Shown: piece after piece, positions 1-61,639 of the stretch
Position numbering within the stretch: the stretch's first letter is position 1
How the letters are laid out: each line of letters begins with the position of its first letter
Assembly: GCA_002633005.1 (NCBI GenBank)
Contig: NMRA01000023.1
Location: 640,205 to 704,204 of the forward strand
Source: Phoronis australis
Taxonomy: Eukaryota; Animalia; Phoronida
Direction: 5' to 3'
Length of the DNA stretch: 64,000 bases
Position numbers and translations under genes: made by a program
The notes under the pieces: model-generated
What the model saw: the letters and a program-made list of their open reading frames with translations, nothing else
Told to the model about the DNA's origin: nothing
Database searches by the model: none

Positions 1-1866
1 AATCTTTTAAATAAAGAAAAGTATTCCGTACACGTCGCATTCAGTCAGTGGCAGCGGCATTGGCCCTTACAACAAGACAATCGTGTGGTAAGTTGGTACA
101 AGGGTATTAAATGTTGGCTCAGCGGGGTCACAAGTGCTGATGAGCACAAAAAGGATGATGTAACAAGGGCCGGGATTATATATTTTTCTCAAAAACGAAA
201 TTATTTTTTAACATTTTCCGTCCTACTTTGATATGAACTCTTATTCTGAACTCGAGTGCATTACGGCTCTCGTGGATGACTGTGCAACTGTATTTTGCAC
301 TTGGTGACCCCATAATTTAAGCTCTAAATCCTAGTCTATACTTGACATCTCGAGTTGTTGCGCGAGTTTATAGGAAGAGTCTAGAGGTCATCAAATGCGA
401 ATTTGGACTACCCGGTTCAAAATGGTTTGGGTAACCCGTAATATATTCAAGGACAGAACAAATAAAAAAAAACGTACCGAGAGAGGTGTATATAAAGTAA
501 TAATCCCACTCGAAATTATTTCGTGCATCGACCTAGACTGAATCCCATACGATTCGAATTCCTAAGTTTGTTTCATTTTTCGCAGAGTTTATAATACTTC
601 CGGCAGACTGTTCACGTGGCGGATCACATCCTGTATGTACGACATGTACTTGGTTGTTAGGTTACAGGTTTTCTCTAGTAAAAACAGTTTTAAATGCAAC
701 AATTTATTACTTGATAAGAGATAACAAATATGAAAACAACGGTGATTGTGCATTGAACTTGCAACAATTCCTGAACATAGCTTAAGTAACCAAAATAACG
801 AGGAATCGGCGCCTGAGTTGCAGACAATATAATATTTAGCAATTGAAAACTAAGACAGAAGTGTCATACAATTAACAGTTTTGTTCCAGATGTTACGTTT
901 GGGACCTGATTGCATGTTGAATGTTATATACACTGCTGCAATTGTTTTACTTTAAACTATTTTGGGAAAGTTTGATGATTGAACCGGCTAACGACGTCGA
1001 GTCGACTTTGACCTACCTTTTGAACTTTACATGTAAGAGGGCGCTGTTAAAGTAGTCCGGTAGGGAAATACGGAAAACAAATATCACTTTTCCGTATTGC
1101 ACTCGACTGATTCAACGTGTAGGTGATAACAGATAATTATCCTGAGTTCGAAGGAGAAAGACAAATGTAAAATATATTTTCAAATAAAAAGATTAGCACC
1201 CAGGGACATGGTGTCATATGATGCAGGTGGTTTACATGAACGAGCAGCTTAGAGATGTATATAGGAATAGTCGTCGTTATGTAAATCATCAGAAAGGAGG
1301 GTTGTTGGGTGATAGCGAGGAACAGTGCTTAACTGGTAACACACAGCAGGCTTCTTAATGAAACGCTATATCCCATCGTGTCGAGTGAATGACTTGTCGC
1401 GACTGGCATAGAGGTATGCCTGAAGAACATTGGGTAGGGCATGGTTTCGATTCCTGCTCCTCGATATATCTCTCCGCAGATGTATTTCCTTGGGGTTGAA
1501 CTCGTTTCTCGGCCGGGGATGTACTGGCGATCGTTGACACGGATTTGCTCATAGAAATTTGATTTTGCCGCTCCCATAGATCACGTGCAGAGAAAACTTG
1601 GCTGCGGATCTCAACTTTAACTTTTAAACGGTGATCGCAAATTCACACCGGATACTGGTCCGTCACCTAACGTTTATTTTTGAAGCTCGTACTCCAATTC
1701 AGTAATAACACTTTGGGCGACAGTGTTCCTTTTATAGTCTTCGCACGACCGATGTAGCTGAAGGTAGGATCATCTTGAAGACTAATGAATCAATCAGGGG
1801 AGACCATCAATAGGATGAAAACTTAAGCAGAAGGGGTAGTCACGTAGGACGAAACAAATCCATCTC

Positions 1867-24132: not shown

Positions 24133-27100
24133 CTGCAAGGATAAGATACTTTGAATGATTGTGACCTGAATACAAGTACTGTAGGTGTGCTCATGTAATC
24201 TCGTGTGAAATAAGACATTTGTTTTATCTATCAAAGGAATACTTATTAAGGGTACTGCAAACCGTCATCCTGTAAAAAATACTTCTGCCTTAGGGTGCAT
24301 GCCGTTTTTTAAACTGGTCTCTTGTTCTTGCTCACTCAGAAAAGAATGGATTTTCTTGGATTGGGAAGCAACTACAGTTCGTTACCACTTCAGACCGGGC
24401 TCGTCAAGTTTGCTTAAACTCAGGCTAGTTGGAGTTTAGAAAATGGGCGCACCCAGCCTGTAAAATGGGGGAAGGCTCTAATTTTTTGAGAACAATGTGG
24501 GCTTTTTACTGAAAACAATTAGTAGTTTCTGCCTTTTTAGTGGATTTTTGTTTCGTTTTCTACTTTTTTGGAGTTTTTGTTTCCCTGAGGCGGACGTTTT
24601 TGCCCACTTAGCGAAATAAGAGGTTCGTTCGAGCCCTCCGAGCCCCCTTCGGTGGGCGCGTGTAGAACACGGCCTCCTTGCTCATTCACATAAATCATTC
24701 CCAAGGCTGACACAAAAGTTTAGGTCACGAACCAGTTTGAGCTGCACAAAGACAGAATCTTTTATATCACAGAGACAGCTGCGTTTCCCTAAATTATTGC
24801 AGTACACTTAAGATGCTGATTTTGCCCATATAAATCGGTCTCGTAATATTCGTTACCGTGGCAGCAATCTACTTCCGATATCATCTAAAGCCACAGGCAA
24901 TGTGTACATGTGCCATTTTCGAATGCACAGATTTTGGGTTGGCCAACTGCAATAAGCTCCAAAGCGTTTCCTGGAGTCACTGATGGTTTTGATGTTGTTG
25001 TTTTAAGGGAACACGGAAGGGAATATTACGAGATCACATCTATGAGAGTGAGAGACCTAATTCGATTTTTCGTTTTTTTATCCAGCTGAACAGAGCGAAT
25101 GCAGCGTTAAGTGCGCACAGTTTTGCAGTGAAGAAGGTGCTGAAATCTTCACTTCACACTGATTCAAGGAACACCAACAAAAATGAACAGTACAGATTAC
25201 AGCAATTACGAAGTAACGCGCAAAATAACGTGATTACTAAACCAGCATGAGCACAGCATACTTTTACGGACTTCGTATAAGGTTCATTCACTGTTTTTAC
25301 CAACGTTTGGATAGTCAAGGACGTTTCTTAACACGCCCGCTTTACTAATTCAAAGCAGGCAAATTAGCTTTTGAAACAACACAAACCTACATTAGTTTTA
25401 TCAAATGTTTACACTCGTACCTGTTGTCGTACACATTCTGGTCCGAGTCACACATTTTGGTGAAGACGTTACTTCTGCTCTTGGTGCAGTCCTGCTTCAA
25501 CCAGTAGTCTTTGCAGCTATCGAAAGGGGGCGGTCTGGTGGGCAGCTCCTCGCACGTGCTGCCTCTAGCCTTGACGTAGACTTTAGGAGCTCTGTAGGGT
25601 CCGAACTTGGCGACATCATTACAGCGAGCTTGGTGGAACTCACAGCTGAAAGCAAATGCCAAGGGTCGGTCTGTTATGGTCTTCAACGTCAGGTAAACTG
25701 AACACGCAAAGACAGATTACTGACTGCCTAACCTATACCGGAGAGTTTTCGTTCAATTATGTTAAAGCGGCATTAAACCTGTGGTTTTTGTCAAAATACT
25801 TTGATTAAGACCACATAACGAGATGTAGTTGGTCTCGTTCCTCGTTCAGAAGCGATTTCTGAACTCGGGGCCGTGACCAAAAGTTGTATAAGCTTGGTTT
25901 GAAGAAGTAACGTTTTTTCCAAGACTAGAAATCACACTTATTTTGACTTTAGGACAACTTGAGACCAGGTCCATAACAGTAAGTGGTCTATACCCATTGT
26001 TGACAAAATTACAGGTTTAATATCGGTGGTAAATGAATTCCTGTTAGTGATAAAGCCATACTTTATTTGATCTAAAGTCACGAGACATTCAGTGAAACAT
26101 TTTCAAGCCAAGAAAACATATGAATATAAGTTCTCAGTTTAACAGAGTTTGCCACACATGCCGTTTATAAGCAAGAAGAAAGCCGTTAGGCTTTTCCGTA
26201 ACATATAGATGTCACAAAGTCGGTGCAACACGAATTAGTGCCAACACTAGAATGGAACATCCTGGTATTCATTGAATAAAGGACCCGTATGTTGGCGTTG
26301 TATAAACGTAGGACACTGAGCCCGGAGGTCTCTTTTTAATGTTGATCACGATCCGACGAAAACTGTTGACGTCAGAGCCCAGAAAATCTAGTACACACAT
26401 TTTCTAAACTAAAAAACTGAAACTGAAATCCACCATCGTTCTGATATCAACGGGTAATTTGCGGTTATGTTTTACTTATATTTTTGAGTTACATGACCTT
26501 ATGAATGATTAATGTCACATACATCACAAAAAGCTGCTCAGGCAGACGTGAACGACATCGTATCGTCACGAGTATAACTTTGTACGCTAACAGGTGTAGC
26601 AGGTGGTAGTTTTTGCGACAGGGAAATGCTCAAATTTTTGTTAGTCCTATTTGAAATACTGTTTTAGAGTGTTTGCGGAATCGTAGTATTTACGACACTT
26701 GATGAATTTTATCTCGCTTTCCAGACTGGGCCCACCCTCGCCAACCCTGATTCTTATCATGCCAAACATTTGGAAACCTGCTTAAAAAAACAGTGCGAAG
26801 TAAACAACCTGTCAAATTGTTTAAAAATTTTAGGTACTTTCAAGTGATTTTTTTCGAAGAGTAAAAACAGGAAAAGAACCTTGATTTTTTTGTTCATGTT
26901 GACATACAAGGGCACTTCCGTTTGCGGCAGGAAGCGAAAGAGTACCGCCTCTCTGGGTTGTTCCTAAGTCGTAATTACAATGACGAATACTGCGGAAAGC
27001 TAGAAACAGCCATTCTCGTTTAAAGTCACACAATCTGTTCTAAGGTGAAAATATGCATTATTGAGATTAGTGTTGTGTAGGGTGGACTTCTTGGGTTATC

Positions 27101-30100
27101 ACCTTTAAACAGAGCTATTTTTGAAACAACAAAATAAGCTATGTTTTGTGAACTTATAAGTCGCGCAGATTCCCTTCATTGGCGTCTAGTCATTCGGGTG
27201 ATTTCAAATACCTCACATTGTCACCGATAATATCACTTGAATGCCTACATGCTTCATGAACGACGCGAGCAATGGGATGAGTTGTTTATTCATGTGGAGA
27301 ATCATGTAGCAGATCACACACGCTTCAACATTGACGCTGCCGGTGAGTGTGCACTCTTGGTAAAACAGCTTTACTTACCCGCGTCATTTCAAAACTTGAA
27401 TTATTCCTCCTGGCACACGCAAAATCAATACAAAACAAGGCCCACCGTTGAAATACCTTCTGTACATTTGCAACTCATACAAGGTAGTCTTTACAAGAGC
27501 CTAGTGTTTTACGACTGCTTATAGAAATGTCTTCTGTACGTTTGCAACGAATAGTCATAGCAAGAACCTGTTTCACTCCTAAAAGGCGTAATTCAGAAAT
27601 TCCTTCCTGCTGATAACATAACTATTTCCTAAAATGGTGTAACTCCAATGCAGTAAAATACATTTAGCTTTTGGAAACATACCAAAATGCTAATCAACCC
27701 GGTAATCTTTATACACGTACATTATTGTAGAACTGTCATTCATTAACAAAATGCAAACTGTTAACTCAAAATACGTTAAATAGTAGTGAAAGTTCAAGTG
27801 CTTGACCTATGCCCCCAGTCATTTTTTTTCAATAAAAAAACAAAACAAATTGTGATGAGCCTAGAGAGTGCAATCTTATTTCAACACAGGCTTAGATCAT
27901 TAACAGGCTACCAAACAGGCGAGAATCTGTTGATTTACGGTTTTAGTCGCTGCAAGGAAAATTATAGAAAATATTGTGCAGGCAATTCTTAGCTGTATTG
28001 ACTAGTCATATCGGACTGTGTAAGACTAATTTCTTACAAGTTTGGTGAGATTATGCGAGTCTTCGCGAGATATGCTATGCTCCTTGTGCGGTACGTGATC
28101 TCACGTGCTTTTAAACAACCTTCGCTACCGAGGTGTAAAATGATCAATGTGTCATATGTATAATGTACATGTACTCATATCACCTCTACCTAACGTAGTT
28201 TGATTCGGAAACTTACTAATTCTTGTAGGTCTTCATGTCTGAGCCGCACAGCGGTTTGCTGTTTTCGTCACATTTCAGGTACTTCGCTGCCCATTGTTCT
28301 GAGCACTTGTCTTGTAGGGGCGGAAGTGTTGGTTTGTCGTCACAGTGCCCGTGATAGATCCAGTGAAGGGCGTGGCCCAATAAACATTCGGCTTTCGCTT
28401 TTTCGCATCTGGAACACAGAGACCGGTAAAGGAGACGAACTGATAGGACTGATTCCCTTATATTCTGAACAAGAGCAACGCAAAACATTGGGATACGCGC
28501 AAGATGGTGTCGAAAACGGTTTGCCCCTAGAGAAGTTCATTGGTACCAAAAATAAAAAACTTCATCGCCTTCCTCACAGGAACACGTTTGCAAAATTTTA
28601 TGAAAATCCGTCCAAGACCTCCAAAGAGATAAAAACGGCCATGAAAATAGAATGTGACAAAGCGGTGGTCGTATACGTCCGAAAAATGCTGTCGTCAGTT
28701 GTATTTGTTATAATTTCCTTCAACGAGTTTAAGATATACTGCCGTGAATGCAAATTACCACAAATGTTCCTGTGGGAAGTTTGACGCATAGGGAAGCTGA
28801 CGCTAAACATCCCCTGGTCTACTTAATAGAAACCCATTTGCCAAACTTCATGAATTTCTGTCAAGGACGACACAGGTGTAAACGTAAAAAATCAATTAAA
28901 AACTGTCCCAAGGGGACACATATATAGTCAGTTGTGTCCGGAAGTCGTCGTCATTTGTTGTGGCATTCATGAAAACACTTGCCAAACTTCACATACATCT
29001 TGCAAGGGTTAAAGAGATAGCAGCTGTGGACAAAAAAATTCTTTCCAGGTAGCACCACGATAATTAGACCAGTTCGAAACTCAGCGTCAGTTGGTGTCTT
29101 CTCAGCAGCAGGGACACATCTGCTAGTTTCCATAATGATTCTTGAAGCGGTTTAGCAGAACCATAGGTGGATGGCAAGAAATGTAAACAAATAAACTTGA
29201 CCACTGGGTGGCATAGAATACGTGGGATGTATCCCGAAATTGGAAAAAAACGTTGTCCCCTTCATAGAAGCCCTTTTGTCACATATTATGAAAATCTGTC
29301 CAGAAACTAGAAAATGAGGGGTAAACGTAAATTAACTAAATTTGACACTAGGGAGCGCTGCGGTGTCAGTTCTTTCCAAAAGTCGTCGTCATACGTTGAA
29401 ATATCGAAAATTCCTCAAGTTCCTGGAACGGGGGACATAAAAAATACCAAAAAGACCACAGTAGTCGGGGCGGTCCGAAAATCAACGTCAGACGTAGACT
29501 TTATGGTGGGAACAAATCTACATGGTGCCAAATTTGTTAAATCCCCCTGAAAATTGGAAGAAGTCGTAGTCTCCTAAAAATTTCCATTTACCAAATTTCA
29601 TGAAAATCCATCAAGGGACTCCTAATATACAGGACAAACGTAGACAAAAATGCCACTAAGGGTCACAGTGGTAGCCAAATCGGTGTGAAACTCATTTTTA
29701 TCTGTCGTAAGAACCCCCATGACAAATCTCATCAAGATCCTGCAGAGGGTTTAGGAGATCCCGACTCGCGTACGACCGGTCAGAGATGACGGAATATGCA
29801 TTCACATATGTATACGTAGGCGCATAAAAAGGTGAGGTTTCCAGATATTTAAAATCGACTGAAAACAATTTAAAGAGGCACAAAACAGCAACTCTTTATA
29901 ATGAGGTTAAAGATCATCCTTTACCAGACCCACACACACACAATCTGATTTCCGCGTTACTATAGAAACTAGGTTGCCTTGACAAACAGTGGATCTTCCC
30001 CGATTGCTTTATTGTTGTAAGTGGTCGACTAGGATCTAACGCTAACTAGAAAACATTTGCTTGTACAGTACATGTATAAACTCCATCACCGAAATCAAGG

Positions 30101-31212
30101 AATTGCAGAATAGAAAAAAAGGATGTATAGAACTTACGTGCTGTTGTATGTAACGCCGTTGTCAGCGCAGTGGGGTCCTACGTGAGCATCAAGTTTGTCG
30201 AACTTGTCACAGTCTACTTTGCTCATGAGTTCACAATATTTTGACTTTGTCTGCGCGGCCACAACTGGAAGATTATGCCGAGAAATTTTAGGATACGAAA
30301 ATATTAAAAATCACCAATACACTATTTATCTTCATTCATATGAGGTGATAGAGGGAGAGTACTGCTTGCGGTGTTTAAGAGTAGGAGTCTTAAAGTTTGG
30401 GTTTGAAATGAATATATTTGCATCACGGAGTCACCTTTTGTACGAAAAACGTTGATTTCTTAGGATGTAAGAACAGACACATAGATATGTTTTGAATGTA
30501 AAATCGTCTGATGTCCTAAATTATGTGAAAAATCAGTGATTTATTAAACTTATTATGAGGTTCTGAGATTTATCCATTAATTTGCCGTCTTGAATTTCTC
30601 AGGGGTTAGTGCCTACAAGTTTTCTAAAACATGCAACCAGCTATGGATACTCAACGGTGACGCATACTACACGTGGCAGTCACGTTTCAAAGTTATAAAC
30701 GAATAAACTGCACTTCAGGAAAATCTAACAATTAAATGTTAAACCCGATTTGAATAGAATATTTCGAAAAGCTTAGATTCCAAATCTGTTAAAACACATA
30801 GAATTAAACGATGATTGTGGACTCCCCTTACAAACTGACGCAATTACTAAGCTCATAACTCAAAAACAAAATTGATTTAGGCGTACCGGCCCATATCACG
30901 GATATAACCCGGTAGCGTTCCTTAGAAGCAAAGCACTTGCGAAAAAGCAACATCACTGTGAAATCACGAGAGTGTTTCGCGAACATGGTCGGAACATTGC
31001 TATCGCGCAGGAGCAAACAGGTGGCCACCGAAATGATTAATCAGCGTGGATGGAATTTTGAATCAAAATTCACTGCCACCATTCCATAAGTAAAGAGTTC
31101 TCACCGCAAATGCCTTGCGATTGTCTTGTGTTTATGGAACTTATCCCCGATATAGAGCCGCTAAAGACAACTTACCGGCCAACGCCAGGGATGCAACGAT
31201 CAACTTCAACAT
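24027..31212 (-). CDS. Secreted two-domain Kazal-type protease-inhibitor-like protein, 164 aa
   Basis: Exons 31176-31212, 30138-30264, 25421-25645, 24027-24132, all GT-AG, phases 1/2/2. Product MLKLIVASLALAVVAA|QTKSKYCELMSKVDCDKFDKLDAHVGPHCADNGVTYNSTCEFHQARCND...GSTCEELPTRPPPFDSCKDYWLKQDCTKSRSNVFTKMCDSDQNVYDNRCFFYQAYCKDNTIRPAFCKPVRPTEEGSTTKPEQ; two Kazal cores C-x10-C-x6-C with TY/VY. Confidence 0.88.
25421..25645 (-). CDS. Kazal gene exon 3
   Basis: tttcag| CEFHQARC...MCDSDQNVYDN AG|gtacga. Confidence 0.9.
25762..26032. mobile_element. Kolobok-like MITE in a Kazal gene intron
   Basis: TTAA-AGCGGCATTAAACCTGTGGTTTTTGTCAA and inverted TTGACAAAATTACAGGTTTAATAT. Confidence 0.55.
28540..29830 (+). 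mobile_element. Helentron-associated (HINE/DINE-1-like) non-autonomous element with diverged internal tandem units
   Basis: Recurring CCAAA(C/T)TTCATGAA(A/T)..TC.GTC and GTCGTC(G/A) blocks at about 28590, 28840, 29280 and 29590; ends ...GCGCATAAAAA. Confidence 0.5.
30138..30264 (-). CDS. Kazal gene exon 2
   Basis: ttccag| VAAQTKSKYC...HCADNGVTYNS |gtaagt. Confidence 0.9.
31176..31212 (-). CDS. Kazal gene, signal-peptide exon
   Basis: ATG LKLIVASLALA G|gtaagt, phase 1. Confidence 0.85.
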
Positions 31213-40183: not shown

Positions 40184-40630
40184 CATAGAACTCTAGCCCT
40201 GGAATGCTAAGTCCAGCACGTGACCATGTATGTCAAGCTTAATTTCATTGCTTCATTTTCATTTTGTTATTATTGTTCATTAAGTGAGACTTTTGAGGCA
40301 CGGTTTCATACAATCAGCGATTTCTCGGCAAAATTAGTCAACAAAGTCGGGAATTACACTCAGTCTGGTAATTCTTTATAATATAAGCACCGACCTGTCG
40401 ACCTCGGTGGATGCCGGGAGTAGTTAGGCCTCTGATATATTTTCAGATCCAGTCGTAGAACCACTTTCGACATGACAAAAGTTTTTTAACAGGACATTTT
40501 TGGGTGTTGAAATCATGATACAGTATTTTACTGAAAGAAGTTAAATTTGGCCTAAATGAAAAGTTTAGGCCCTAATAACAGGTGTGTTTACGTAACTTTC
40601 GAAAAATTACTCATAATTGTTTGCTTAGCT
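40184..40630 (-). mobile_element. CATAGAACTCTAGCCC family, copy 2 (opposite end of the element)
   Basis: Terminal match plus reverse-complement similarity to 8575-8875. Confidence 0.7.
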
Positions 40631-48372: not shown

Positions 48373-48764
48373 GCTTCCATGGCAAGACTTTAATGGCTAC
48401 ATACGAAACGTTTTGTGTCCGTTGGATCCAAAGGTGAGAGTGAGAGGTCCAAATGACCACAATCTAATTGTTGTGACAAGTGGGCGTTGTGAAAATTAAG
48501 ACCTGAACAACGGTGTCACTTAATTGTCATGTCACCAGTAAGTAAACGATCGCTCAATAACACATGCTACAAGCATTACTCCAGGATACATGGACCTGAA
48601 GCATAACCATGGATACTCGTGTTTTTTAGCTAAACAACGATCACATCCTGTTATCAACAGTCGTATTATAATTGTCATGACAAAGCCAACACCAAAAGCT
48701 AGGAAATCGAGTGAATCGAATCACTGAATGTATCCCAGGATCCCGATTTGCTCTTCCATTCTCT

Positions 48765-50325
48765 TTACACACACCCGCCGTAACATCTACATTTTCTGTA
48801 GCGATCAAACTCCCAGGATGCACAACCCATTCTACCGCACTTACTCCTGCAGTCGGTCCATGTAGACGCCCATGTAATTCTGTAGCGTTTTGGTATACCA
48901 GAATTGAGGAATCCCTCGTCGAACAGAACTGAAAATATAGGATATCGCAAGATTGAAAAATGTGAATTTAAACTGCTTCTCATTGTTGAAAGATTTAAAA
49001 CTTTAGTTTAATGAGGTCCGTACTTAGACTGCTCTTTTCAGTAATTATATAATTTCATGCTTAGGCCAATTAGAAAATTCTGAGTTTGATGTCTGAAAAG
49101 ATAGGTTTGGGCTAGCAGATGCCTTTCAAACATGTTAAGTTATGTTTCAGCTATGCTTAGGAAATGTCACGTACATGTACACAAGGACTAGTGTCTAGTG
49201 TTTTGATTTAATTTTGTGCTCGTCACAAAAATCGTATCGTGATATAATACACTTCTTTAAATGCATTATGTATACCCCAAGTATACGAGTTGTTTGGGTG
49301 TACTTTAATTGACTGGGCAGATCTTTATCGATCAAATCCAGGCCTTTAAATTTTCGAAAGTTTTGGCCGTTTTGAAAACTGATTTCTCTTTTTTAATTAG
49401 TGCACGAGTCAGTTTCCATGGAATTTGTGCGCCCATATTTTGTAGTCTATGTACGAGAGACTGCCAAAAAACTAAGACTTACGACGGTATTTCAAAGGGG
49501 ATTTATATGACTGTTTGAGGATAGATAAATCTCTGACACACGATACCCTGCACATTGACCGAATTCATAGTCCTAAGAACGAAATCACCTGCAGTTTAGG
49601 TTTTTCTAAAAATTCGTATTCAAAATATGCAAATACACAATGACAATTCCATAAAATGGCAGCCCTTTAGGATAAAAACAAAATTCGCGAAACGAATTCG
49701 TAAATCTACAGTAATATTGCTGTGAATATATCGACTCAAGTCGACGTATAGTACATTTTAGAAACGTTGTGCTCTAGATCATTTAACATATGATGGGTGA
49801 GTTAAAAATTCCAGATTCCCGGCCTGAGATGTTGTCATGGCAAAGGTGTGGACATCATATCAAACTTCATTAGACTAGTTAACTCAGAAGTAACTTACAT
49901 CGCTTTTCACGTTCACTTCGTCCCTCTGAAAGGCTCACTGAAAAAATAGAATGCAAAACAACATTCTGTATTCACGATATTTTATGTCCTAAACGGTTTA
50001 TGTAAAATGTTCAGTTTGCTAAGGATATCAAATATTCACAATCCATGGCAAAATGTCTTCGTTAGGTTTAAAATCTTCACAAATCAACACAGAGTGAGTC
50101 CTCGTAATAACGTTTGCCTCGTAAAGTTAGTCTTAAAGTGACACAGGCGTTTATTTTTTCATCACCAACGCCTCATCGTTAGGTTCAGGTATGTTTAACT
50201 ACTATGGAGATTGTTGAGCGGAGGAAATTACGTCGTTCCATACTTATACATGCAATTAGGCAATGTAACTTACCCAGAACGAGGACACAAAGGACGAGAG
50301 CACAGACGAGAATGAAGCCTCTCAT
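48765..50325 (-). CDS. Secreted six-Cys defensin-like peptide precursor A, 84 aa
   Basis: Exons 50274-50325, 49899-49937, 48765-48928 (GTAAGT donors, TTCAG acceptors, phase 1): MRGFILVCALVLCVLVLVSLSEG|RSEREKR|FLFDEGFLNSGIPKRYRITWASTWTDCRSKCGRMGCASWEFDRYRKCRCYGGCV; clear paralog at 54589-59058. Confidence 0.88.
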
Positions 50326-50736
50326 AATTCTTGTTTTAATTTCTAAGATGAAAGAGAAAGTTTATAGTACACATTTTGACATAAAACTGAACTGTCAAGT
50401 GTTATCCTTTGCGCCACATCAGTGACCTGCAGGACATTGGTCCAATCAACAGAAGAACAAAAGAAGGGAAACAGCAGGTCGTTTCCGTAGATTCGAGGAA
50501 TGCCTGGAATCGGGCTGGAAATTACAATAGAAGTGATCAAATTATGTCACGTTAACATTTACTTATTTTTTCCATTCTATCAAAGTACAAATATTTTCGA
50601 CTTCTGATGTCACACATGAAACATTTAACAACAATCTGAACACTGTATAGTGTAGTTGTTATTCAGACTCGACTTAAGGAATAAACGCATCTATAACAAC
50701 ATCAAGTTTGAGCGCGTACGTACCAGTCAAACTTAC

Positions 50737-50809
50737 AGAATATTAGACAAGGCCCAAGTCTTCTTCACAGTTCAGTGTAGTAGTAGACGTGCACGCTCTC
50801 GTATTTATA
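50737..50809 (-). promoter_or_regulatory. TATA box and non-coding first exon of peptide gene A
   Basis: TATAAATA at 50802-50809 on -; GTAAGT donor at 50731-50736; acceptor CTTAG just before the signal exon (exon starts 50342). Confidence 0.7.
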
Positions 50810-53794
50810 GGTCGCCTCCTATTTGCACCGACGTGTAATTGACGGATTGCTAAGTTGACTGCAAACAGCCAAAATTACCGATGATAGTCGACAGCGCTTG
50901 TTGATTATGGCAGACATAATTAAAGTAGGTGTGTTCTGTAGAACACAGATTAGATATTAACTACTGAAATAATCTAATTTGTTTAATTAACTTACACGGG
51001 TAAATAGTAGTACATGTATGGATTGTGCTAAAAACAGGAAATATCTCTAGTTAACAGACAAACATTGGACAGAGATGATGATTCTTGATTACGGTGTCTT
51101 AAAAATTTATTAACTGTTCGTTATTCTACGTTTAAACGTTTTTTGGTGGCAACAAAATAAAGACTCAGAAGAGTCTTTGAACCTATTGATTTCACAATAT
51201 TGGGATAGTTGTACTTTGTTTGTATGCATCAGTCGAAAGATGCTCGTTGGGCGCCTGACCGGGAATGTGCCTAGTTACGTAAACTCATTACAATTTGTAA
51301 CATATTGGGGTAGCAGGTCAGTTACATGTACATAATGCTGAACACTTTCTCCATCTTGACGAGTCTGGTATCTGCATCTTCACTGCCACAAATTCCAAGA
51401 GCCTCACTTGACCCAGTGTATATTGGCAGCTCTCTCGGCTACGAAGCTGTTAGGTTACGTAGGACCCTAAAAATTCCAAATTTGGTTAACATCTCACCAT
51501 CGTATTTCAAAAATGGCTGAACGGATTCTTATGGAACTTCCAGACACTAACTACGCTTTAGGCACTGTTCTGTAACCTAACTATTCAGAGTTGTTTTTGA
51601 ATTGTTCCATATTTGGTGAAGGGCTATAAAATTGGACTTTTTAAGGTTTTCATAAAAAGAACTCAAAAGCTGTACAAGACGAAAACGAAATATTTTAGAA
51701 AATTGTGACAGTATTTTTAAGATTTCTCCTTGAACATTGAACAAATGTTTGGTTATGTTTTTGATAGTGCTGTCCTATTTCGATGTACCTTCCATTTTTG
51801 CTATTACTTATGTTCACCTGAACAAATTTATGTTACATTAGTAAACATTCATAACTCCAATTTTAGAAGCTACAAAACACTGTGAAGACAGCTGTACATC
51901 TGGTTGTTTCACAGTTCTGGATTCAAAAAAATATTGTCGAAATCTCAAGATCAAAAAAGCCTTTTACATCTAGTATGGGTTGTTCTAGAACCCCCTTGAC
52001 CCCCTCTATCCATGACCCTTAACCCACTCGACCCGCGACCTCCGACAATAGAGGCCTCTTGGCGTTTGTTACAAATTTCATAATTTTTGCTGTCGATTGA
52101 CTCTCGCATAAGACTTACCTACACGAATCTGCTCTGGCTCAACACTGGCGGTAAAAACAGAATTTTCGTAAGAACACGATCTGAAATGACGGATTGTGAG
52201 GGCGTATCATTGTCACGGAAATAGTTAGCTTTAGTGCAGAACTGCAACTAAATATACAGGTTTGCGCCGCCGTGGGTAAATAAAAACGACCAAACAAAAT
52301 CTGACACAAAATTAGAGTCGTTAAAAACTACACTCTCCCTTGAGTAAACTACGTTATTTACACGTGTTGGAAAAAATGGCGTTCCACCCGTTATTCGCCT
52401 GCTAAAGTTGTGATTCGGCTTTCGACACCATGAAATATTGCGTCACCTGTCGAACAGTTTCTTTTTCCCCGTTTTTTCAGTCAACTGTTCTTCTTTTCCA
52501 CGAGGTTGCGTACGTATGACAACAAATGATCGGAACAGGCTCGCGCTAGCCGCTTGCCAGCTCGTCATTGGCGAATTCTGAGCGGCACTGGCGATGGTAG
52601 AGTTAAGTCCAATGAGATAAATATAACTAGTATATAGCTCATTGGTTTAAGTCCATTCGCCAATTTGGCGAATGCTGTCGCAACTTCCTAATAAAAATTA
52701 ACTTCGGGAAACCTACTCTCGTGTCGACTCACAGTCAACTCAAATCAAGTCGCTCTGCAAACGATATTCTTTCTTGGATTCAGAGTCCTAAAAATAACAA
52801 GCGAATGTTTCATTTCATGTTTGTCACTACCCCTGAAATCACTCTTTTACGGCAGCGAAATGTTCAGCTGTGTAAACGAATAGAAGACTATTTTCGGTGG
52901 TAAACGCGACCCAGTCTCTCAATAACTTTTTACACTGGCGACGTGATGTGAACCGGTCAGACGGTATTTTAATACCGTTAAAAATTACCGAAGGATAAAA
53001 CTGAACTGAGTTGACCAGCCTCAAACATGCAACATGAACTCAAAGTTTAAATTTATTTTCACATTACACGAATCTCCTAATTCATTACTAAATTTGCGAA
53101 TTTTCAGCGCACAGTTTGTCGCATCAAATATTGTTTGAGACTTGACAATGACAGGTTTTCTTTTCAAGGAGTAAAAGGCGTGGATGACGCCGGGAACAAC
53201 GAGTTGGTTATCTGTTTTTAAGTCAAAATACATCAGATGTCATACCTAGTCAGCTCGCTATATGTTGCAAGTGTAAAAACAGGTGCCCGTGGTTTCTGAG
53301 AGGGCATTTTTTTAGGTGGAGGGGAAAATTCTACATCCCGATCACAATCAATAGCACCCCACCACCATTTTGCAAGCCCTCGTAGGCTCTGCCCCAAATA
53401 CGGTAGCCAAAAGTCAAATTTTTGCGCTATCTCAACTTGTGACCTGCGTGAGTTACAAATGATTCGAACCTCGAGGGGGATTTTTCAATCAAGGAAGGAA
53501 TTTGTGAACCTCATGAGCGGAACGGAATTTTGCATGATTTTTCAATATCTTTCAGAGGGGAATGGGGTTGATATTCCGCCCCAAAATCAAGGGATTGAGG
53601 GCCCTGAAAAGGATATTGAGACACCTGGACCCGTTTGCATTTCGGTGACGCCGGAAAGAAAGCAAGTCACTTAATGAGTTTTATATTCACTACCCGGCAC
53701 GATTCAGCTTTATTTTGCAAGTCTCAAGTTAGGTTAACGTTTTTGGACTAACATGTAAATGTCTTGCTCATCAAAATGCCCACATTGACCGGCG

Positions 53795-53940
53795 TACCTC
53801 TGCCGTAACCCGGGGATGGGGGGGGGGGGAATCCCTGCTCAATGTTTTTAGGTCAGCATCAATGAAGCACCCATGTCCATGTGGCCAGCCTACCTCCGCC
53901 GTAACCCGGGATGGGGGGGTGGGGGGAACTCCTGCACAAT
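53795..53940 (+). repeat. G-rich direct duplication
   Basis: TACCTC(T/C)GCCGTAACCCGGG(G)ATGGGGGG..GGAA twice, about 96 bp apart. Confidence 0.75.
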
Positions 53941-54481
53941 CACACGCAGGGGGCCAAGGGGGAACTCTGTCCAAACTTTTTTGGTCATAATTAAATACAT
54001 ATTGGCTGACATTCTCCCAACTTATTATGCTGCTATGTGACCTTAGAATATTGATCATTTGTTTTTTCTTAAAGCAAACGTCTTTTCTATCCTACATTTA
54101 TGAATAGGAAATGTGCATAACATTAACAATACAATGTTCTGTCCGTGTAACATTGTTTTTATAAATTGTGCGGGTTGGGAAAAGAGAGAGTATTTGACTA
54201 ATAATTTTTGAAATGGCTAAAAGTTTTCAAAGGCTTTAAGGTAATGTTGAAAAACATCTACACGGGTTTTCTTTGCGTATCTTGAAAGCGTTGTCATTCA
54301 TCTCGATAGGTCAATCATCGAAAATACTTACAATGCGACTCAACTATCTAGTTTCACTTTCTGTGGTTGGATTTGTGTTTCGTGCCCTTTTTATTTCATG
54401 ATAGCTCGAAATAACAGCATTTTGACAAAACGAGCTGTCACGTAGGAAGTCAGTGCAGTCGAGAAAGCTAAACAAGTGAAC

Positions 54482-54487
54482 TTTATT
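54482..54487 (-). promoter_or_regulatory. Polyadenylation signal of peptide gene B
   Basis: AATAAA on -, about 100 nt after the stop. Confidence 0.6.
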
Positions 54488-54588
54488 AAGTGGCATGTAC
54501 TTGTATTCCATTTGGCAAACATTCCATCGAATTCAGTGGCAGATGGATGTAACTGTCAAATGCACGTCATAGAGCTGGGACCGAGAAT

Positions 54589-57500
54589 TTACACGCATCC
54601 TCCCCAACATCGGCACCTGTAGTATTGTTGCTGAAACTGGGAAGTTGAGCAGCCCATGCTGCGACACATGTTCTGACATTGCGACAACGTGAAGGAATGC
54701 CCAACTTTATATCTTTTCGGAATGTCTGAAAAATTAACGAATATTGCATTGTGTTTTAGCAGACAAAACAGATTGAAAGTTAGATATAACCGTCTGGTTA
54801 CTTCCTGTCACCACTGCGTCGATCGTTCAGCGAAGTGAATGACATGTATCAGTGTTGTCTACATGAATGAATGTTGCCATGTTGGTCTTTTTATATGCGC
54901 CAGGTGCAAAGTGCTCCGAAGCTATAGTTTACAGTGAAACAACAAAAGTGAAGCTAAGATACCAGGCCAGACAAACGAAAATACTAGATAGATGTTACAG
55001 ACAAAACATAAAGCGGCCACCAATCCGCGTTTCGTAAAAAATACATTGATTTAGACCCTTTGCCTCCGTACAGCAGAGTTGCATGTTGTTCCTAACTCAG
55101 ATAAGAAGCTGCATCAAAATTTGTAAAACTGTCTGTTCCTTATGCTCAAGACCATGCTCAGCACATAAAGGGACTGACCGAAATACACGTGACTTCGTGC
55201 ACTTAGTGAAACCCAAGACAACTTTTTTACACTTGTGTAGGTGATGGAAAGGTCTGCTGATGTCAGTTGCTACATGTATGACCAAAGAAAACTGGCTGAT
55301 GCTGCTTTGTCGCTAAAAATTTAGTCACAAAAATATGGAGCTCACTTATAGCTTTTTCCAGAAAAACTCTTTTTAAAAACGTTCCAGAATATTTGGAATC
55401 TATGATTCATCGTATCCAAAGTCTGGTGCTGCTTTATATTTTATGATAGCCGCTACCATTGTAGCGTTTTTAAATTACATGATTGTATTATGTAATGGTT
55501 ATCATCCATAGGATACATTCATCCTCAATGTTGTGATTAGGGAGTTCAACTGGAATGATAAGTTGAGCACAGGCATACTTACTTCGTTCAACGCGTTCAG
55601 ACGTGCCCTCCGAAACTACAACAAAAATTGAAAACAACATTAAAACAAGAGCAGTAACAATAACACCCACACGTACATTTCATCCTATAATTCAACGCTG
55701 CCGGTGTAGCGATGACGAGAAATTTTGAAGTCAGTCATTCAGTACATAGATGTATTACGTATTTATTTTAGTGGAGTTGCATTAACTGACTTTATGAAGT
55801 CTTAACACGTGCAGAGTGTTGAATTAAAAAACGAAAAAATAAATGTTTTGCTTAACTTCGTATGCCTGTCTGCAAAAACGGACTCTATGTTCAGACCAGT
55901 AACAGAAAGAAAAGAAGCCCAAAGTGGCGCATTGTGGTACCTTTTTAGTGTCACTATTTGATTTCGTGTAATACTTTTTCTCCATATGTTGCGAACCAAA
56001 ATCTACATGTAGGTACATGTGTGTTTACGTACACACATCCTTGAATATTAGAAAGGATATCCAAGTACCGATTTCATTATAAACTATCACAAGAGATGAA
56101 AACACCACAGAGATTTAACGCAGATTCAGGGTAACGACTCGTATTATCTCTCAAAAGCAACCTTTTGCTTAATGAGTGTTGACTTCCGTTTCTAATCAGC
56201 GGGTGTACAGAGACTCGATGCTAATATTGCACATGTATTATCACCCGCTGTTTGATTTGTTAATGAGGCGAAATGTACAATGCTTTCCAGAAAGAATGAC
56301 GTACAGTGTATGGTATTTATTTTCAAGAAGCGCGGCAAAGGTGACTACGGCCGACAAGGAGGAAATTAACAATTGGTATGACTTCAAAACCACTTCTTTT
56401 AAATTCAACCATAGTTCTGTTAAATTCATTTCCTGGCAACAAATCAAACAATATCTACTTAGCCTTATTGAAAGAAATGACAACTCCGATTTTATTAATT
56501 AATAAATCAATTAAATAATTTATTCATTCATTTATTTAATTGTCGTCTATCTTGTCACTTCATCCTACAGTTCTTTGCAGCTCATTTTTCACCCATGTCC
56601 CGCTTTTTGATACACGGTAAAATTGACATATTGTTATATACTGTTGTAATTTCTCACGCTCCCTATCCAAATTTTCCCGCTCAGCACCCGCAATTTCTCA
56701 TTCAACAATAAGAAACAACAACAGAAAACGCAGTTTTGGGTTTAACATCTCTTGTTCGATGAAAAGTGCCATTCTTTCGTCACTGTGTGCGGCAGCGAAC
56801 ATTTCATCCTTACTTTTTGTCTTAGACTCAGATGTCCCGCTTTTTATCCTGAAGTCCCGCTTTTCAATCCAGTTGTTCCGTTTTTCCGTTCTTGAATGTT
56901 GACCGTGACAACTATGCAACAGGTGTCCAAAATAACATTGTGTCTTTTTATGAATAATGTTATTTTCCAGAGTGCACTTTCTTTAGTAACATAACTATTG
57001 TATAATGTGTTTCATTGTCTCATGTTTACGGTAACATACAATATATGTTACTATCAGGATCAGTAACTTTTACTTTCTGAAGAAAAGAGTTTCTAAACTT
57101 TTCTAAAAAGTCCTACACCGCAACCAATCTGATGAGCTATCCACAGTAAATTTCAAAGTTACCTGATACATGTTGATGTTAGCCCAATTTTTATCTAGTC
57201 CATCAGAAAACCTTTATCTGCGAACTTCGGATAGATACTTGGAGTAGTTTATCGCAATTTTCGTAAAATCCACTGCATTCCGAGTTTTTAGGGCACTAAA
57301 GGTCCAATTAACTATAGCTAAAGATGTTTAATGTTGGATGAATCCCTGACTAAATTATCCACAGCAAGTGTGAGGGACCTATATTCTAAAACCTTTCTCT
57401 TTATACGATGGAAATCTTTCGAATCATTGAAATTACATCTTTAATGGCTTAACTAGACTTTTAAATTTACTCTCTGGTTCATTTCCTTTTGATTTTACTA

Positions 57501-59058
57501 TTAAGCGCTGTTCTTTGTCGCATCTTGGTAACCCTCTTGATTTTCATGATTAAAAAAATATTTTTAATCCGGCAGCTATGTGAATACCTTTTAATATTTA
57601 TATATTTTAAGCTGCATAAAAATATGTAAAATGATATATGAAATTGTTTGCCAAAACAAAAGTTTGCCTATTGCCCAAAAAGATTTCAAGAAGAAGGTTA
57701 TAACATTGGAAGTGATGACTGGAAAAGTCATTGTCTTTTAAAAGTTATGTACACTGCAGTTTAAATTATTACATAGAATACTTGCAACGAACTATTTTCT
57801 TAAGAAAAAAAGAACTTGGTGTACTCTGATGTATGTACTTTCTGCCAGTCACAAACTGAACCAGTAGATCACATCCTTTTCTAATGCAATAACATAAAAA
57901 TATTGACAGAAGAATTATACAATTCGGCGTTGTCAGTAAAAGTATCAATTTGATTATTGACAAAATAACAATGATATTTGGCTTGGCCAAAACTAACGAA
58001 AATAAAGTTTTAAATGGGATTCTTTTGCAATTAAAATATTTTATTTACGTACCTAAGTGTAAAAATGATATCCAGTTTCTGTCATTTTCTTAAGATATTA
58101 GAAAGAGAATTTTATATTCAATGAAGACTTTTATTAAATTATGGTAATTTAAATGAATACCAGGCAGCCTGGAGAAACTGGTGAACCATTACCTTTCCTG
58201 ACAACATCCTACCTAAAGTGGGTGGGTATGTTGAGGGGTTTGGGTGCGTGTGTGCGTTTGTGCGTGAGTGTGCGTGTTAAGAGTTTTGCAGTTTTTGTCT
58301 TTCGTGTCTGTATGTTTGTTTTTTATACCAATGATAATTACTCATGAAATAAATTATTTATCTTTTGATTCTGGTATAAAAAAGAAATGATAATGATATG
58401 ACTCTTATGCAATTCGGTTGAAAAACGGCGGAGTTGCAAAACATTTTAAATTCACAACCCGGAACAAACGAATGCAAACAAGTCAAACGCATGCACTGCT
58501 CAACCTCAGTGGCCGCGAGATCGGAGTTGGCATTCCAGGGCTAGAGTTCTATGGTAAAACGAAGTCGAATATGTAAAATAGGGAGAAAATTAGTCGACCA
58601 ATGTAACTGATAATCTTTAAGCTACGAGGCTGAGTTTGAACTCACGGAAAATCTCAAGAGTTTGCAGTAAAGCTCAGGCTCCTGTACTGTGTTGTGCTTA
58701 ATTTCATCTCAGTCTGTTTTCACAGTTTTGAAACGATGGTTTAAATGTACATGTAAACTGAAACGCTTCATATAATGATTGTATAAAAGTAACCGTAAAT
58801 AAATTTCCTCGAAAATGCTCTATTGTTTCTTGCAGTGGATACTTCATTTAGGGTTTATCCAAATCTAGATACAAAAATGTATCTAGATTGAGATGAAGCA
58901 GGTTATGCCACAACCGTGGTTATGGAACAGTCCTCAGTCTATATGTAAATTAGATTTTAAACAGTGAGTTCTCGACAATTATCTCTGAGTGTCCAATCTT
59001 AATACTTACTAAGAACCATCACACAGATGAGAGCACAGGCTAGGACATAACGACGCAT
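54589..59058 (-). CDS. Secreted six-Cys defensin-like peptide precursor B, 72 aa
   Basis: Exons 59010-59058, 55583-55615, 54589-54725 (GTAAGT donors, phase 1): MRRYVLACALICVMVLISEG|TSERVER|NIPKRYKVGHSFTLSQCQNMCRSMGCSTSQFQQQYYRCRCWGGCV. Confidence 0.86.
56590..58553 (-). mobile_element. CATAGAACTCTAGCCC family, copy 3, interrupted by a LINE fragment, in an intron of peptide gene B
   Basis: Terminus at 58509-58553; body 56590-57030 is the reverse complement of 7790-8230. Confidence 0.7.
57600..58390 (+). mobile_element. L1/Tx1-clade LINE 3' fragment
   Basis: LQFKLLHRILATNYFLKK, CTFCQSQTEPVDHILF*C (zf-RVT), LNGILLQLKYFIY, then TG-rich UTR and A-rich tail. Confidence 0.8.
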
Positions 59059-61639
59059 TGCTGATGAGTTCCGGTGCTAAAGAGAGAAGGACAATTGTAT
59101 GTTACAGTACGTGTTGCCTTTACGAGGAAAACTGCTGAATCTTTTGCAAGCAGTTATTGGGGACAAACAAAACAACAAGAATAATATATGTTTTTTAAAA
59201 CTTAAAAGCTGTATAGGAAATTTCAGGGTCACAACTCTACAAGAGATAACACACACATTTACGATTCCCAATGTGTAATTGTGTATAGGATACTAAGTGA
59301 ACAAACAGCGCTACCACCGAACTAGGTAGGAACTAACTAGGAGTTGGATATGAAGCATGAAGGGATGTATAATGGTATTTGCCCAAACAATAGGAATTAT
59401 GTCAGAGTGCCATAAATCTCATCATTGTGGACAAATAAAACAACAAGAAACATATATATCTTAAGTCGTATTTTGAATTTCAGGGTCATAGCTCTACACA
59501 TAAATATTTCTCACAAGGTTCCTTAATTAAATATTTTTGTTGGATCAAAACAAAACAGGCTCGGGGGGCTTTACTCTTTTATTGACAGAATAAGTAGTGG
59601 CAGTAGTAGGTAAACTGAAATATAAAAAAAACTATGTTCATGTTTACACGTTACATAATGCTATACCATGTATAAACAGTTCAATGCTCCGGACAACGCC
59701 CAAGAAAATGTCGACGGGCAAAGGGCATGCATTACTAGCAAGCGTTCAAAACGTTAAATACATCTCCTGAGAGAACAGGGGGAAACTGCACTGAATGTAA
59801 ATAAACTAGTTTATATCAAAAACACGAGTACTTACGCCGATATCGCCCCAAGTCCAACCAAATTCCGTTGAAAATAACTATGTACAATAGACGTTTCTCC
59901 ACGATAGACGTTTGTGGAATGATATTCGAAAAAAGGCGGCACCAGAACAAACAGTTAGAGAAAGCGATATCTGGCGCAAAAACTACACAGTAACAAATTT
60001 ACTTACAAGGCGAGTATTCGTACGCTTAAATCAAAATAACACAACAAGGCAGTCTGCAGTAACAATTTTATTGAAAGTAAAACGTTTTTACAAACATAAC
60101 AGACCTCTTGAGCAAAACGGAGGTTTATAATTAACAGAGTCAGAGCATCACTTTCCAAATCACTGTAAAGCAAGAAAAAAGGTAATTCTGATTAAAATCC
60201 CTTTTAAATAGGGACATAAACAAATGCAGAAAAGTAAACACTCGAAGGCTGTAGAAGGTGCAGAACCTGTCCAAAATGACACGGTTCCAATATCCGAAAT
60301 GCAGAGTGTCACACAGCATAAAAAGAGTTTTTTTGTCACATATTAGGGCCGCTATGCAGTTACTAACGACTGTGTATCACGATATGTGCCACAGGAAAAA
60401 CTTCATACGGAAGCTTGCATGTCTATTATATATCTATGAAAGAAAAAGAAAATATCTACAAAAATCTTCCAGAACACAACTATACGGTAGGGAAGCAACA
60501 AGATCTCTGGAATAATAATACCGCAAAAAGTCATATAAAATATACAACACCCAGTACACAAAATCAGGTAAGCAACTTGGTATACAAAATATGATTGCCA
60601 GTAAGAAAACCTAGCACCGTATCAAATGTGTTCAACGAATAATCTATAGCTAAGCAAAAGGACAAATAACATTTGTGCCTGCGATGTCAGGAACAGATGG
60701 ACTTACATCTAGTCAGTAAATGCAATTAATCCTAGGGTTCCTGTTTCATGAAAGTTTAGTCTAGAAAGTCCCATTGCTAGCACGATGTCATCAGCACTAT
60801 GCAACAAGTTTTTATGTAATTGCATAAGAGTGAAACCACAGGCTCCAACTGAGTTTGGGCTATTCGGATCCCAGGGTGCTTTGGTGTTGAAACAGGCAAT
60901 TTAGCCTGACACAAAGGTTAAAAAAATGAAAAGTTTCAAAATTTTGAAATCTTAAATTAATAACTTTGTGTTAGACACTACTGGTAGCCTGAGATGATTT
61001 ATGCGCCTAAACGGCCAGAAGTAATCCACTAATGTTACAGTGACACGCTTTCGAGAACTTGGCGCAGTTACATGTATACTGTTTACTAATAGCCCGGGTG
61101 TTGTGGCTCCCGGGTTGCTGATGAAGACAACCCTACTTAACTGGCTTACGACAACTGTTAGAGTGACTGGCTTAGACATAATCACACCAAAATGAATAAC
61201 TAATGAACGAAAATAGTAAAAATGAATAAAAACAGCTTACCCTTTTCGTCTTGCTCTTGCCGTGGTGGCACTCGAGCGCGGATTTCGTAAGACGAAGCTA
61301 TACTCGCAAACGGGCCAGCCTGGGAAGTGGACAACTTAGCAAGGATGTGTGACGTGACCTCGTCGATCACTACGTCCGCCTATCTGCCGGCAGCTCGACC
61401 ACTGCCTGCACTTCCGCGATTAACTGAAACACCGCTACAGTAGCCGTCTATTCGAAAATCGTCATGGTGCGAAATGCCCGACCACGTTGCGAGACGAAAA
61501 CAAAGTTGACGCATTACCGTAAATTAAGCGCGGTTGGAATAGGTTAAAAATTATGCCAAGGGGACGAAATGTGAAGTATTATGTGGTACAAATCGCCACG
61601 AGTCTTTTCAAATGTCGTTTAAGCACGTTTTGCTGATAT

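Follow-up and report, generated by a model that had tools for sequence, protein, structure and literature searches.

The genome of the phoronid Phoronis australis carries, in a 64,000-nucleotide (nt) stretch of contig NMRA01000023.1 (assembly GCA_002633005.1, positions 640,205 to 704,204; this whole 64-kb stretch is referred to here as the window), two minus-strand genes, A and B, that appear from their sequence to be a real and well-built pair of unannotated genes for likely secreted six-cysteine peptides. The cysteines are arranged as C-3-C-4-C-10/11-C-1-C-3-C, which is the eight-cysteine CS-alpha-beta array (CS for cysteine-stabilised) of molluscs and nematodes minus the C2-C6 pair, with a phenylalanine common to A and B at the C6 position. 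The best explanation, to which we give a probability of about 0.55, is that A and B are cationic CS-alpha-beta host-defence (antimicrobial) peptides of a new disulfide variant. A defence role is favoured because the peptides are small, cationic, aromatic, and likely secreted, and because their cysteine frame is closest to those of mussel, nematode, and sponge antimicrobial peptides. The disulfide frame is absent from the reference set checked, and A and B fail membership of every named family tested.

Gene structure, precursors, and duplication

Gene B lies upstream of gene A. Both genes are present as the initial annotation had described them, with its quoted peptides exact: three coding exons in identical layout, phase 1 throughout, and frames that stay open to the stop, giving precursors of 84 (A) and 72 (B) amino acids. 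The introns, 336 and 970 nt in gene A and 3394 and 857 nt in gene B, are all GT-AG. A crude matrix made for this analysis, applied to every GT or AG dinucleotide in the window, puts six of the eight coding splice sites beyond the 98th percentile and the remaining two at about the 94th. In both genes a strong acceptor lies 17–18 nt before the ATG, hence a non-coding first exon is likely and each gene probably consists of four exons. The TATA box predicted for gene A is present at 50809, with the refinement that the likely non-coding first exon follows it and that the ATG comes only about 480 nt downstream. The polyadenylation signal predicted for gene B is found as AATAAA at 54487. In gene A no AATAAA occurs within 1200 nt of the stop, and the only related motif is ATTAAA at 48394, 371 nt downstream. 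Upstream of gene B, strong minus-strand donors are seen at 61240 and 63356. A CpG-rich stretch precedes one of them, and the other has a TATA-like site no more than 150 nt away; each could mark the end of a non-coding first exon of B or be part of a different gene.

The product of exon 1 is basic and then hydrophobic (best 9-residue hydropathy 3.6 in A and 3.2 in B) and is likely a signal peptide. The peptides after the conserved I-P-K-R-Y are 39 (A) and 40 (B) residues long, with net charges of about +4.7 and +3.8 and with 7 and 6 aromatic residues, respectively. In both precursors the stop codon directly follows the residue behind the last cysteine. Only gene A has, between its two basic sites, an acidic-hydrophobic spacer about 10 residues long (window 48897-48928), which could serve to mask charge or be a small peptide released together with the main one. 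The peptides counted from I-P-K-R (48768-48896 and 54592-54723) have the same average mass, 5158 Da, with over half of their residues differing, and this is taken as coincidence. In the proposed maturation, the signal would be cleaved near an S-E-G motif, and convertase cleavage at the micro-exon end and after P-K-R would release the peptides of 39–40 residues; the basic site that makes the mature N-terminus is likewise presumed.

An ATG together with a hydrophobic stretch and a donor in phase 1 occurs at exactly two sites in the 64 kb, those of A and B, compared with a mean of 0.15 in 40 shuffles. The full cysteine array followed by a stop also occurs twice in the window and in none of 200 shuffles, a test that shows rarity only, because the pattern was drawn from the peptides themselves. 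The two last exons match at a BLASTP E value of 4e-14, with 20 of 44 residues identical (45–47% identity over the last exon) and all six cysteines aligned. Agreement is 28/43 at first, 30/43 at second, and 14/43 at third codon positions; the proportion of differing synonymous sites is saturated (pS 0.83), and that of nonsynonymous sites is 0.33 (pN). Different codons encode 14 of the 20 identical residues, and only one cysteine codon in six is common to the two genes. The mature part (47% identical) and the signal (59%) are about equally conserved, and the ends I-P-K-R-Y and G-G-C-V are kept despite synonymous saturation. Because synonymous sites are saturated while the protein and its six cysteines are kept, A and B are, on this comparison of their coding sequences, an old duplication whose protein product is held by purifying selection. 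Neither the signal-exon scan nor profile and pattern searches across 3536 six-frame fragments found a third copy within the window; gene B lies about 5 kb from the window end.

That the genes are no longer expressed, or that the proposed exon joining is wrong, is very improbable. The lack of a canonical AATAAA in gene A would fit such an account, as would the absence of either product from the protein collections searched, yet two independent copies keep their frames, phases, splice sites, and cysteines across synonymous saturation.

Cysteine array, predicted fold, and the PAN/apple module

On the ten-cysteine reference array of PMC5116183, A and B have C3, C4, C5, C8, C9, and C10 and are without C2 and C6. 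Both CS-alpha-beta motifs, C-x3-C and C-x-C (reference C3, C4, C8, C9), are therefore present in both peptides. Myticins, mytilins, and ASABFs have the same C4-x4-C5 spacing, and the C5-x4-C6 count places Phe30 at C6 (PMC5116183). Of the classical defensin features, neither the C2-C6 disulfide nor the gamma-core GxC/CxG was found, as the helix is preceded by no cysteine and the first strand of the hairpin contains none. The peptides are not typical defensins because this third CS-alpha-beta disulfide is absent. When read by spacing numbers, the 533-row reference table of PMC5116183 (2016; headings included) has no row with this combination of cysteines. Its nearest rows are eight-cysteine mollusc and nematode defensins, myticins, a sponge ASABF-type peptide, and alpha-KTx6 toxins, with four residues between C5 and C6. 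The initial annotation could not match the peptides to a named family, and Pfam, HMMER, and this table bear it out.

Structure predictions agree with the helix and beta-hairpin that the initial annotation expected. AlphaFold2 in single-sequence mode predicts strand-helix-strand-strand for A (predicted local distance difference test, pLDDT, 88.5) and a helix-hairpin with a disordered N-terminus for B (pLDDT 73.8). In both models a helix (13-23) carrying C-x3-C is followed by an antiparallel hairpin (27-39) carrying C-x-C, and an extra N-terminal strand is predicted in A only. With VIA-align, mytilin 2eem is the first match of B (Z 4.0, root-mean-square deviation (rmsd) 1.5 Å, 32 of 34 residues aligned) and has the lowest rmsd among the 50 matches listed for A (Z 3.8, 1.4 Å, 31 aligned). 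These scores are tied with those of other folds. If the unaligned residues sit in the hairpin, five of the six cysteines would be in register with mytilin. The position of the first cysteine of mytilin in this argument is partly our assumption. The register is otherwise derived from the mytilin array (PMC7168163) and from where the aligned ranges end (11..41 or 11..42 of the model, 1..34 of mytilin). Macins, MGD-1, and ASABF are not among the top structure matches listed, an absence that is not in itself a test.

Mytilins and myticins resemble A and B in further ways: they share the C-x3-C-x4-C ... C-x-C ... C framework, they are cationic, and their genes have four exons (PMC7168163). They differ in that mytilin, myticin, and ASABF have eight cysteines and four disulfides, whereas A and B have six and are without the C1-C5 bond of mytilin. 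Compared with mytilin, A and B have a shorter hairpin, a longer N-terminal arm, and three residues instead of two before the last cysteine. Mytilin carries an anionic C-terminal extension (PMC7168163), which A and B are without, having an N-terminal pro segment instead. ASABF/ABF, the sponge ASABF-type peptide, and MGD-1 share with A and B reference C3, C4, C5, C8, C9, and C10 and the C4-x4-C5 spacing (PMC5116183); unlike them, A and B lack both C2 and C6. The 'ASABF 6-Cys-alpha' group in the same table keeps C6, unlike A and B.

Several observations weigh against placing A and B among the CS-alpha-beta defence peptides. The classical fold is completed by a C2-C6 bond, which is missing here. 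PAN/apple chains rank first for model A (SML-2 Z 5.0–5.2, rmsd 1.7; HGF Z 4.6–4.8), with scorpion and plant CS-alpha-beta peptides at Z 4.2–4.4, within one Z unit of PAN. Foldseek gives model A template-modelling (TM) scores of 0.69–0.72 for PAN, compared with about 0.5 for most plant defensins. No Foldseek E value is below 0.001 and no Z above 5.2, and no CS-alpha-beta family is matched significantly by sequence or by structure. The only named lead for B from ESM features is a PAN cluster (0.75). The window holds only two old copies and not a large variable cluster. A cysteine array alone is without predictive value for activity (PMC5116183), and the two-disulfide CS-alpha-beta peptide Sm2 is reported as non-antibacterial (PMC12284004). 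The remaining neighbours are mixed. For B, all five Foldseek matches listed are CS-alpha-beta peptides, and VIA-align adds LURE (Z 3.7, rmsd 3.1) and a MIC4 apple chain (Z 3.5). ESM features, which serve as leads only, place A near scorpion-toxin and defensin clusters (0.76–0.81) and B near unnamed clusters and PAN (0.75–0.77). The CS-alpha-beta assignment of the initial annotation thus holds for the predicted fold and the mytilin match; it is weakened by the absent C2-C6 pair and by PAN/apple chains that match model A as well or slightly better.

A and B might instead derive from a PAN/apple module that was trimmed to its strand-helix-hairpin core and gained one C-terminal disulfide, acting as a small secreted binder of carbohydrate or protein (agglutinin, opsonin, or adhesive). 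We regard this as unlikely, and as the foremost of the rivals. PAN/apple domains (SML-2, MIC4, the HGF N-domain, plasminogen) share this core with A at 1.7–2.0 Å over 38–41 residues, and PAN chain 2ll4 lies on B at 1.2 Å over 32 residues (Z 2.8). PAN modules have four cysteines paired C1-C4 and C2-C3 (PMC3338822), and by position these map on the first four cysteines of A and B. Some aromatic positions align as well, the residue five places past the third cysteine being F or Y in 21 of 30 PAN cores. However, A and B are about half the length of a PAN module, stand alone behind a pro segment, and end in a C-x-C-x3-C tail; Pfam PAN has no match on them, and PAN accounts for only four of the six cysteines.

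Sequence profiles speak further to this point. An HMMER search of 1.84 billion representative proteins gave four matches at E values up to 0.001, all by way of summed repeats. None was accepted as a homologue: two are low-complexity proteins and two, the only non-repetitive matches, are multi-PAN proteins aligned over profile positions 5-40, whose best single domains have independent E values (i-E) of 130–210. A PAN profile built from these matches gave A and B 21–22 bits, a score that is circular because its source proteins had been picked for likeness to A and B, and it was discarded for an independent profile. An initial search for PAN in a single genome gave no match. PAN_4 was then sought in 301 bacterial genomes, 31 of which had a match; 40 cores were cut by cysteine pattern from 30 loci, and 30 non-redundant cores from 20 loci were kept, chosen regardless of A and B. 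On this profile A scores 3.7 and B 2.5 bits, values reached by 14 and 66 of 500 cysteine-fixed shuffles, respectively, and four true PAN repeats score 18–26 bits, each reached by 0 of 500. The C2-C3 gap is five residues in 26 of the 30 cores and four, as in A and B, in one; a cysteine two places past C4 occurs in none of the 30. PAN stays a rival because the profile test is one-sided, with bacterial PAN cores and no matching profile of a CS-alpha-beta family. It is also conceivable, though somewhat less probable than a trimmed PAN module, that A and B stand between the two superfamilies, as a PAN core that lost its outer strands, gained the C-x-C-x3-C tail, and became a defensin-like effector. 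If so, they would connect PAN modules with CS-alpha-beta defensins and toxins, either as a living link or as a clear example of convergence.

Homologues and likely function

Other searches returned no relative. Each last exon was compared with 5.8 billion proteins in a word-indexed search restricted to near lengths, which gave no candidate. Among metagenome contigs, none of 598 pattern matches was confirmed; among prokaryote genomes one of 78 was, and it is an 8-residue chance match between stops. Pfam and NCBIfam found nothing meaningful on A or B. PDB sequence searches gave no E value below 0.1, and the three best sequence matches of an A+B profile in PDB are CS-alpha-beta peptides at non-significant values (E 0.54–0.64). 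In a control search, an exon of a neighbouring Kazal gene was likewise without a scoring relative among longer proteins. Therefore, missing homologues are weak evidence, as the lineage seems poorly covered. The initial annotation proposed a lineage-specific peptide family: no true homologue was indeed found, but restriction to the lineage does not follow, since the databases also miss the neighbouring gene. Searches for published descriptions of this cysteine array, including a full-text search with three short motifs, gave no relevant paper within a coverage that leaves out most subscription journals. Dash 2019 reportedly defines a two-disulfide CS-alpha-beta class and may list such arrays. 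The available text of PMC10608444 and PMC2575384 does not describe the array of A and B.

If A and B are CS-alpha-beta defence peptides, the cysteines of the helix C-x3-C would bond to those of the strand C-x-C and the third cysteine to the last, as in mytilins. A maurotoxin-like short form is also possible: maurotoxin shows that this scaffold allows a short C3-C4, C7-C8 pairing, which is said to be favoured when a Gly precedes the last cysteine (PMC11477167). The invariant Phe30, together with the N-terminal strand, may fill the space that the C2-C6 disulfide would otherwise occupy. In A, the acidic spacer would mask charge until release, and microbes would be killed through binding to their anionic membranes or to cell-wall precursors.

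Antimicrobials, toxins, and signals are all built on this scaffold (PMC5116183). A role as secreted, convertase-released signalling ligands (hormone-, chemokine-, or pheromone-like) with a defensin scaffold, acting on receptors, is a little less probable than a trimmed PAN module. Such a role would suit an old conserved pair with identical ends in the face of synonymous saturation, dibasic sites that resemble those of neuropeptide precursors, a plant signal peptide, LURE, as a structural neighbour of B, and the cytokine-like properties reported for myticins (PMC7168163). However, no known ligand family is matched in Pfam or HMMER, no receptor gene is seen within the window, and the strong positive charge and aromatic content suit membrane-active peptides.

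The initial annotation left the choice between antimicrobial and toxin open, and of these the defence role is favoured. A role as ion-channel toxins in a venom or a defensive mucus, comparable to the alpha-KTx6 toxins with their four disulfides or to the centipede SLPTX15 class, ranks just below the signalling role in probability. The pre-pro-mature layout with phase-1 introns is that of scorpion venom genes (PMC5308243), though many secreted proteins share a phase-1 intron. Scorpion toxins are among the weak structure, feature, and sequence neighbours. The alpha-KTx6 toxins maurotoxin, Pi4, and HsTx1 have a similar spacing (5,3,5,4,4,1,2), a cysteine after the helix, and a terminal cysteine; compared with them, A and B have one disulfide fewer, a longer hairpin loop, and no Lys at the dyad position. 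In the register given by spacing, the residue before the C6 position, the dyad Lys23 of maurotoxin (PMC11477167), is Glu in A and Gln in B. The two-disulfide SLPTX15 class (SsTx, Sm2a) lacks the third classical disulfide and keeps the helix-sheet bonds (PMC7232367), a pattern with which the cysteines of A and B are compatible. Its member 6bl9 aligns at Z 3.4 and rmsd 2.8, and the N-terminal strand of the class is predicted in A only; A and B differ from it by an additional cysteine pair, shorter length, and no sequence match.

Gene organization bears on the same question. MgCRP-I genes of Mytilus have a layout resembling that of A and B, with a 5'-untranslated-region exon, a 17-codon signal exon, a phase-1 intron, a pro exon, and a last exon that opens just before a dibasic site (PMC4558851). 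Unlike A and B, they have a C-C-CC-C-C array, a phase-2 second intron, and a hypervariable mature region (PMC4558851). The even conservation of signal and mature parts and the scarcity of shared cysteine codons in A and B set them apart from families with hypervariable mature regions and biased cysteine codons (PMC4558851). The animal, moreover, is not identified as venomous. A toxin is less likely than a defence peptide because Glu or Gln stands at the position of the dyad Lys and because the pair looks old and conserved, not hypervariable.

Feature coordinates, surrounding sequence, and implications

Table 1. Features of genes A and B, with positions in the window.
Feature	Position	Strand	Description
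Gene B first coding exon	59010..59076	-	acceptor AG 59078-59077, ATG 59058 (coding part 59058-59010), 16 codons, signal-peptide-like, phase-1 donor
Gene B 33-nt micro-exon	55583..55615	-	signal end and short pro segment, R-x-x-R at end, phase 1 both sides
Gene B last coding exon	54589..54725	-	P-K-R site, then 40-aa peptide, Cys spacing 3,4,11,1,3, stop
Gene B AATAAA polyadenylation signal candidate	54482..54487	-	about 100 nt past stop
Gene A TATA box candidate	50804..50809	-	putative function
Gene A likely non-coding first exon	50737..50780	-	5' end presumed from TATA box; GT donor 50736
Gene A first coding exon	50274..50342	-	acceptor AG 50344-50343, ATG 50325 (coding part 50325-50274), 17 codons, signal-peptide-like, phase-1 donor
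Gene A 39-nt micro-exon	49899..49937	-	signal end and short pro segment, R-x-K-R at end, phase 1 both sides
Gene A last coding exon	48765..48928	-	acidic spacer of about 10 aa, P-K-R site, then 39-aa peptide, Cys spacing 3,4,10,1,3, stop

Elsewhere in the window, a multi-exon Kazal-type protease inhibitor gene lies at 25387-30310 on the minus strand, with exons near 28216-28408 (Pfam Kazal_1, E 2e-4) and at 25421-25646 (Kazal_2, E 0.013) and probably at 30134-30310. Broken reading frames at 12158-14288 on the plus strand, which are without Pfam support, resemble a decayed transposon-type gene. Intron 1 of gene B shares dispersed repeats with sites elsewhere (7723-8054, 40184-40229, 56744-57038, and 58509-58555), and 285 nt are duplicated in tandem at 15134-15702. 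The window has a GC content of 39.7% and a CpG observed/expected ratio of 0.91, and the 8-mer TACATGTA is enriched 14-fold, values in keeping with the genome of a marine invertebrate. Rfam and ARAGORN found nothing in the window.

If the host-defence explanation is true, A and B would represent a family of short, cationic, so far unannotated peptides whose disulfide frame is unlisted among the CS-alpha-beta arrays checked, and would be antimicrobial leads that are easily made and tested. The classical third disulfide would then be replaceable by an aromatic core while the fourth bond of molluscs and nematodes is kept, which bears on the evolution of the defensin scaffold. Genes of this kind, built with micro-exons, would also form a class that is overlooked by open-reading-frame tracks and protein collections.

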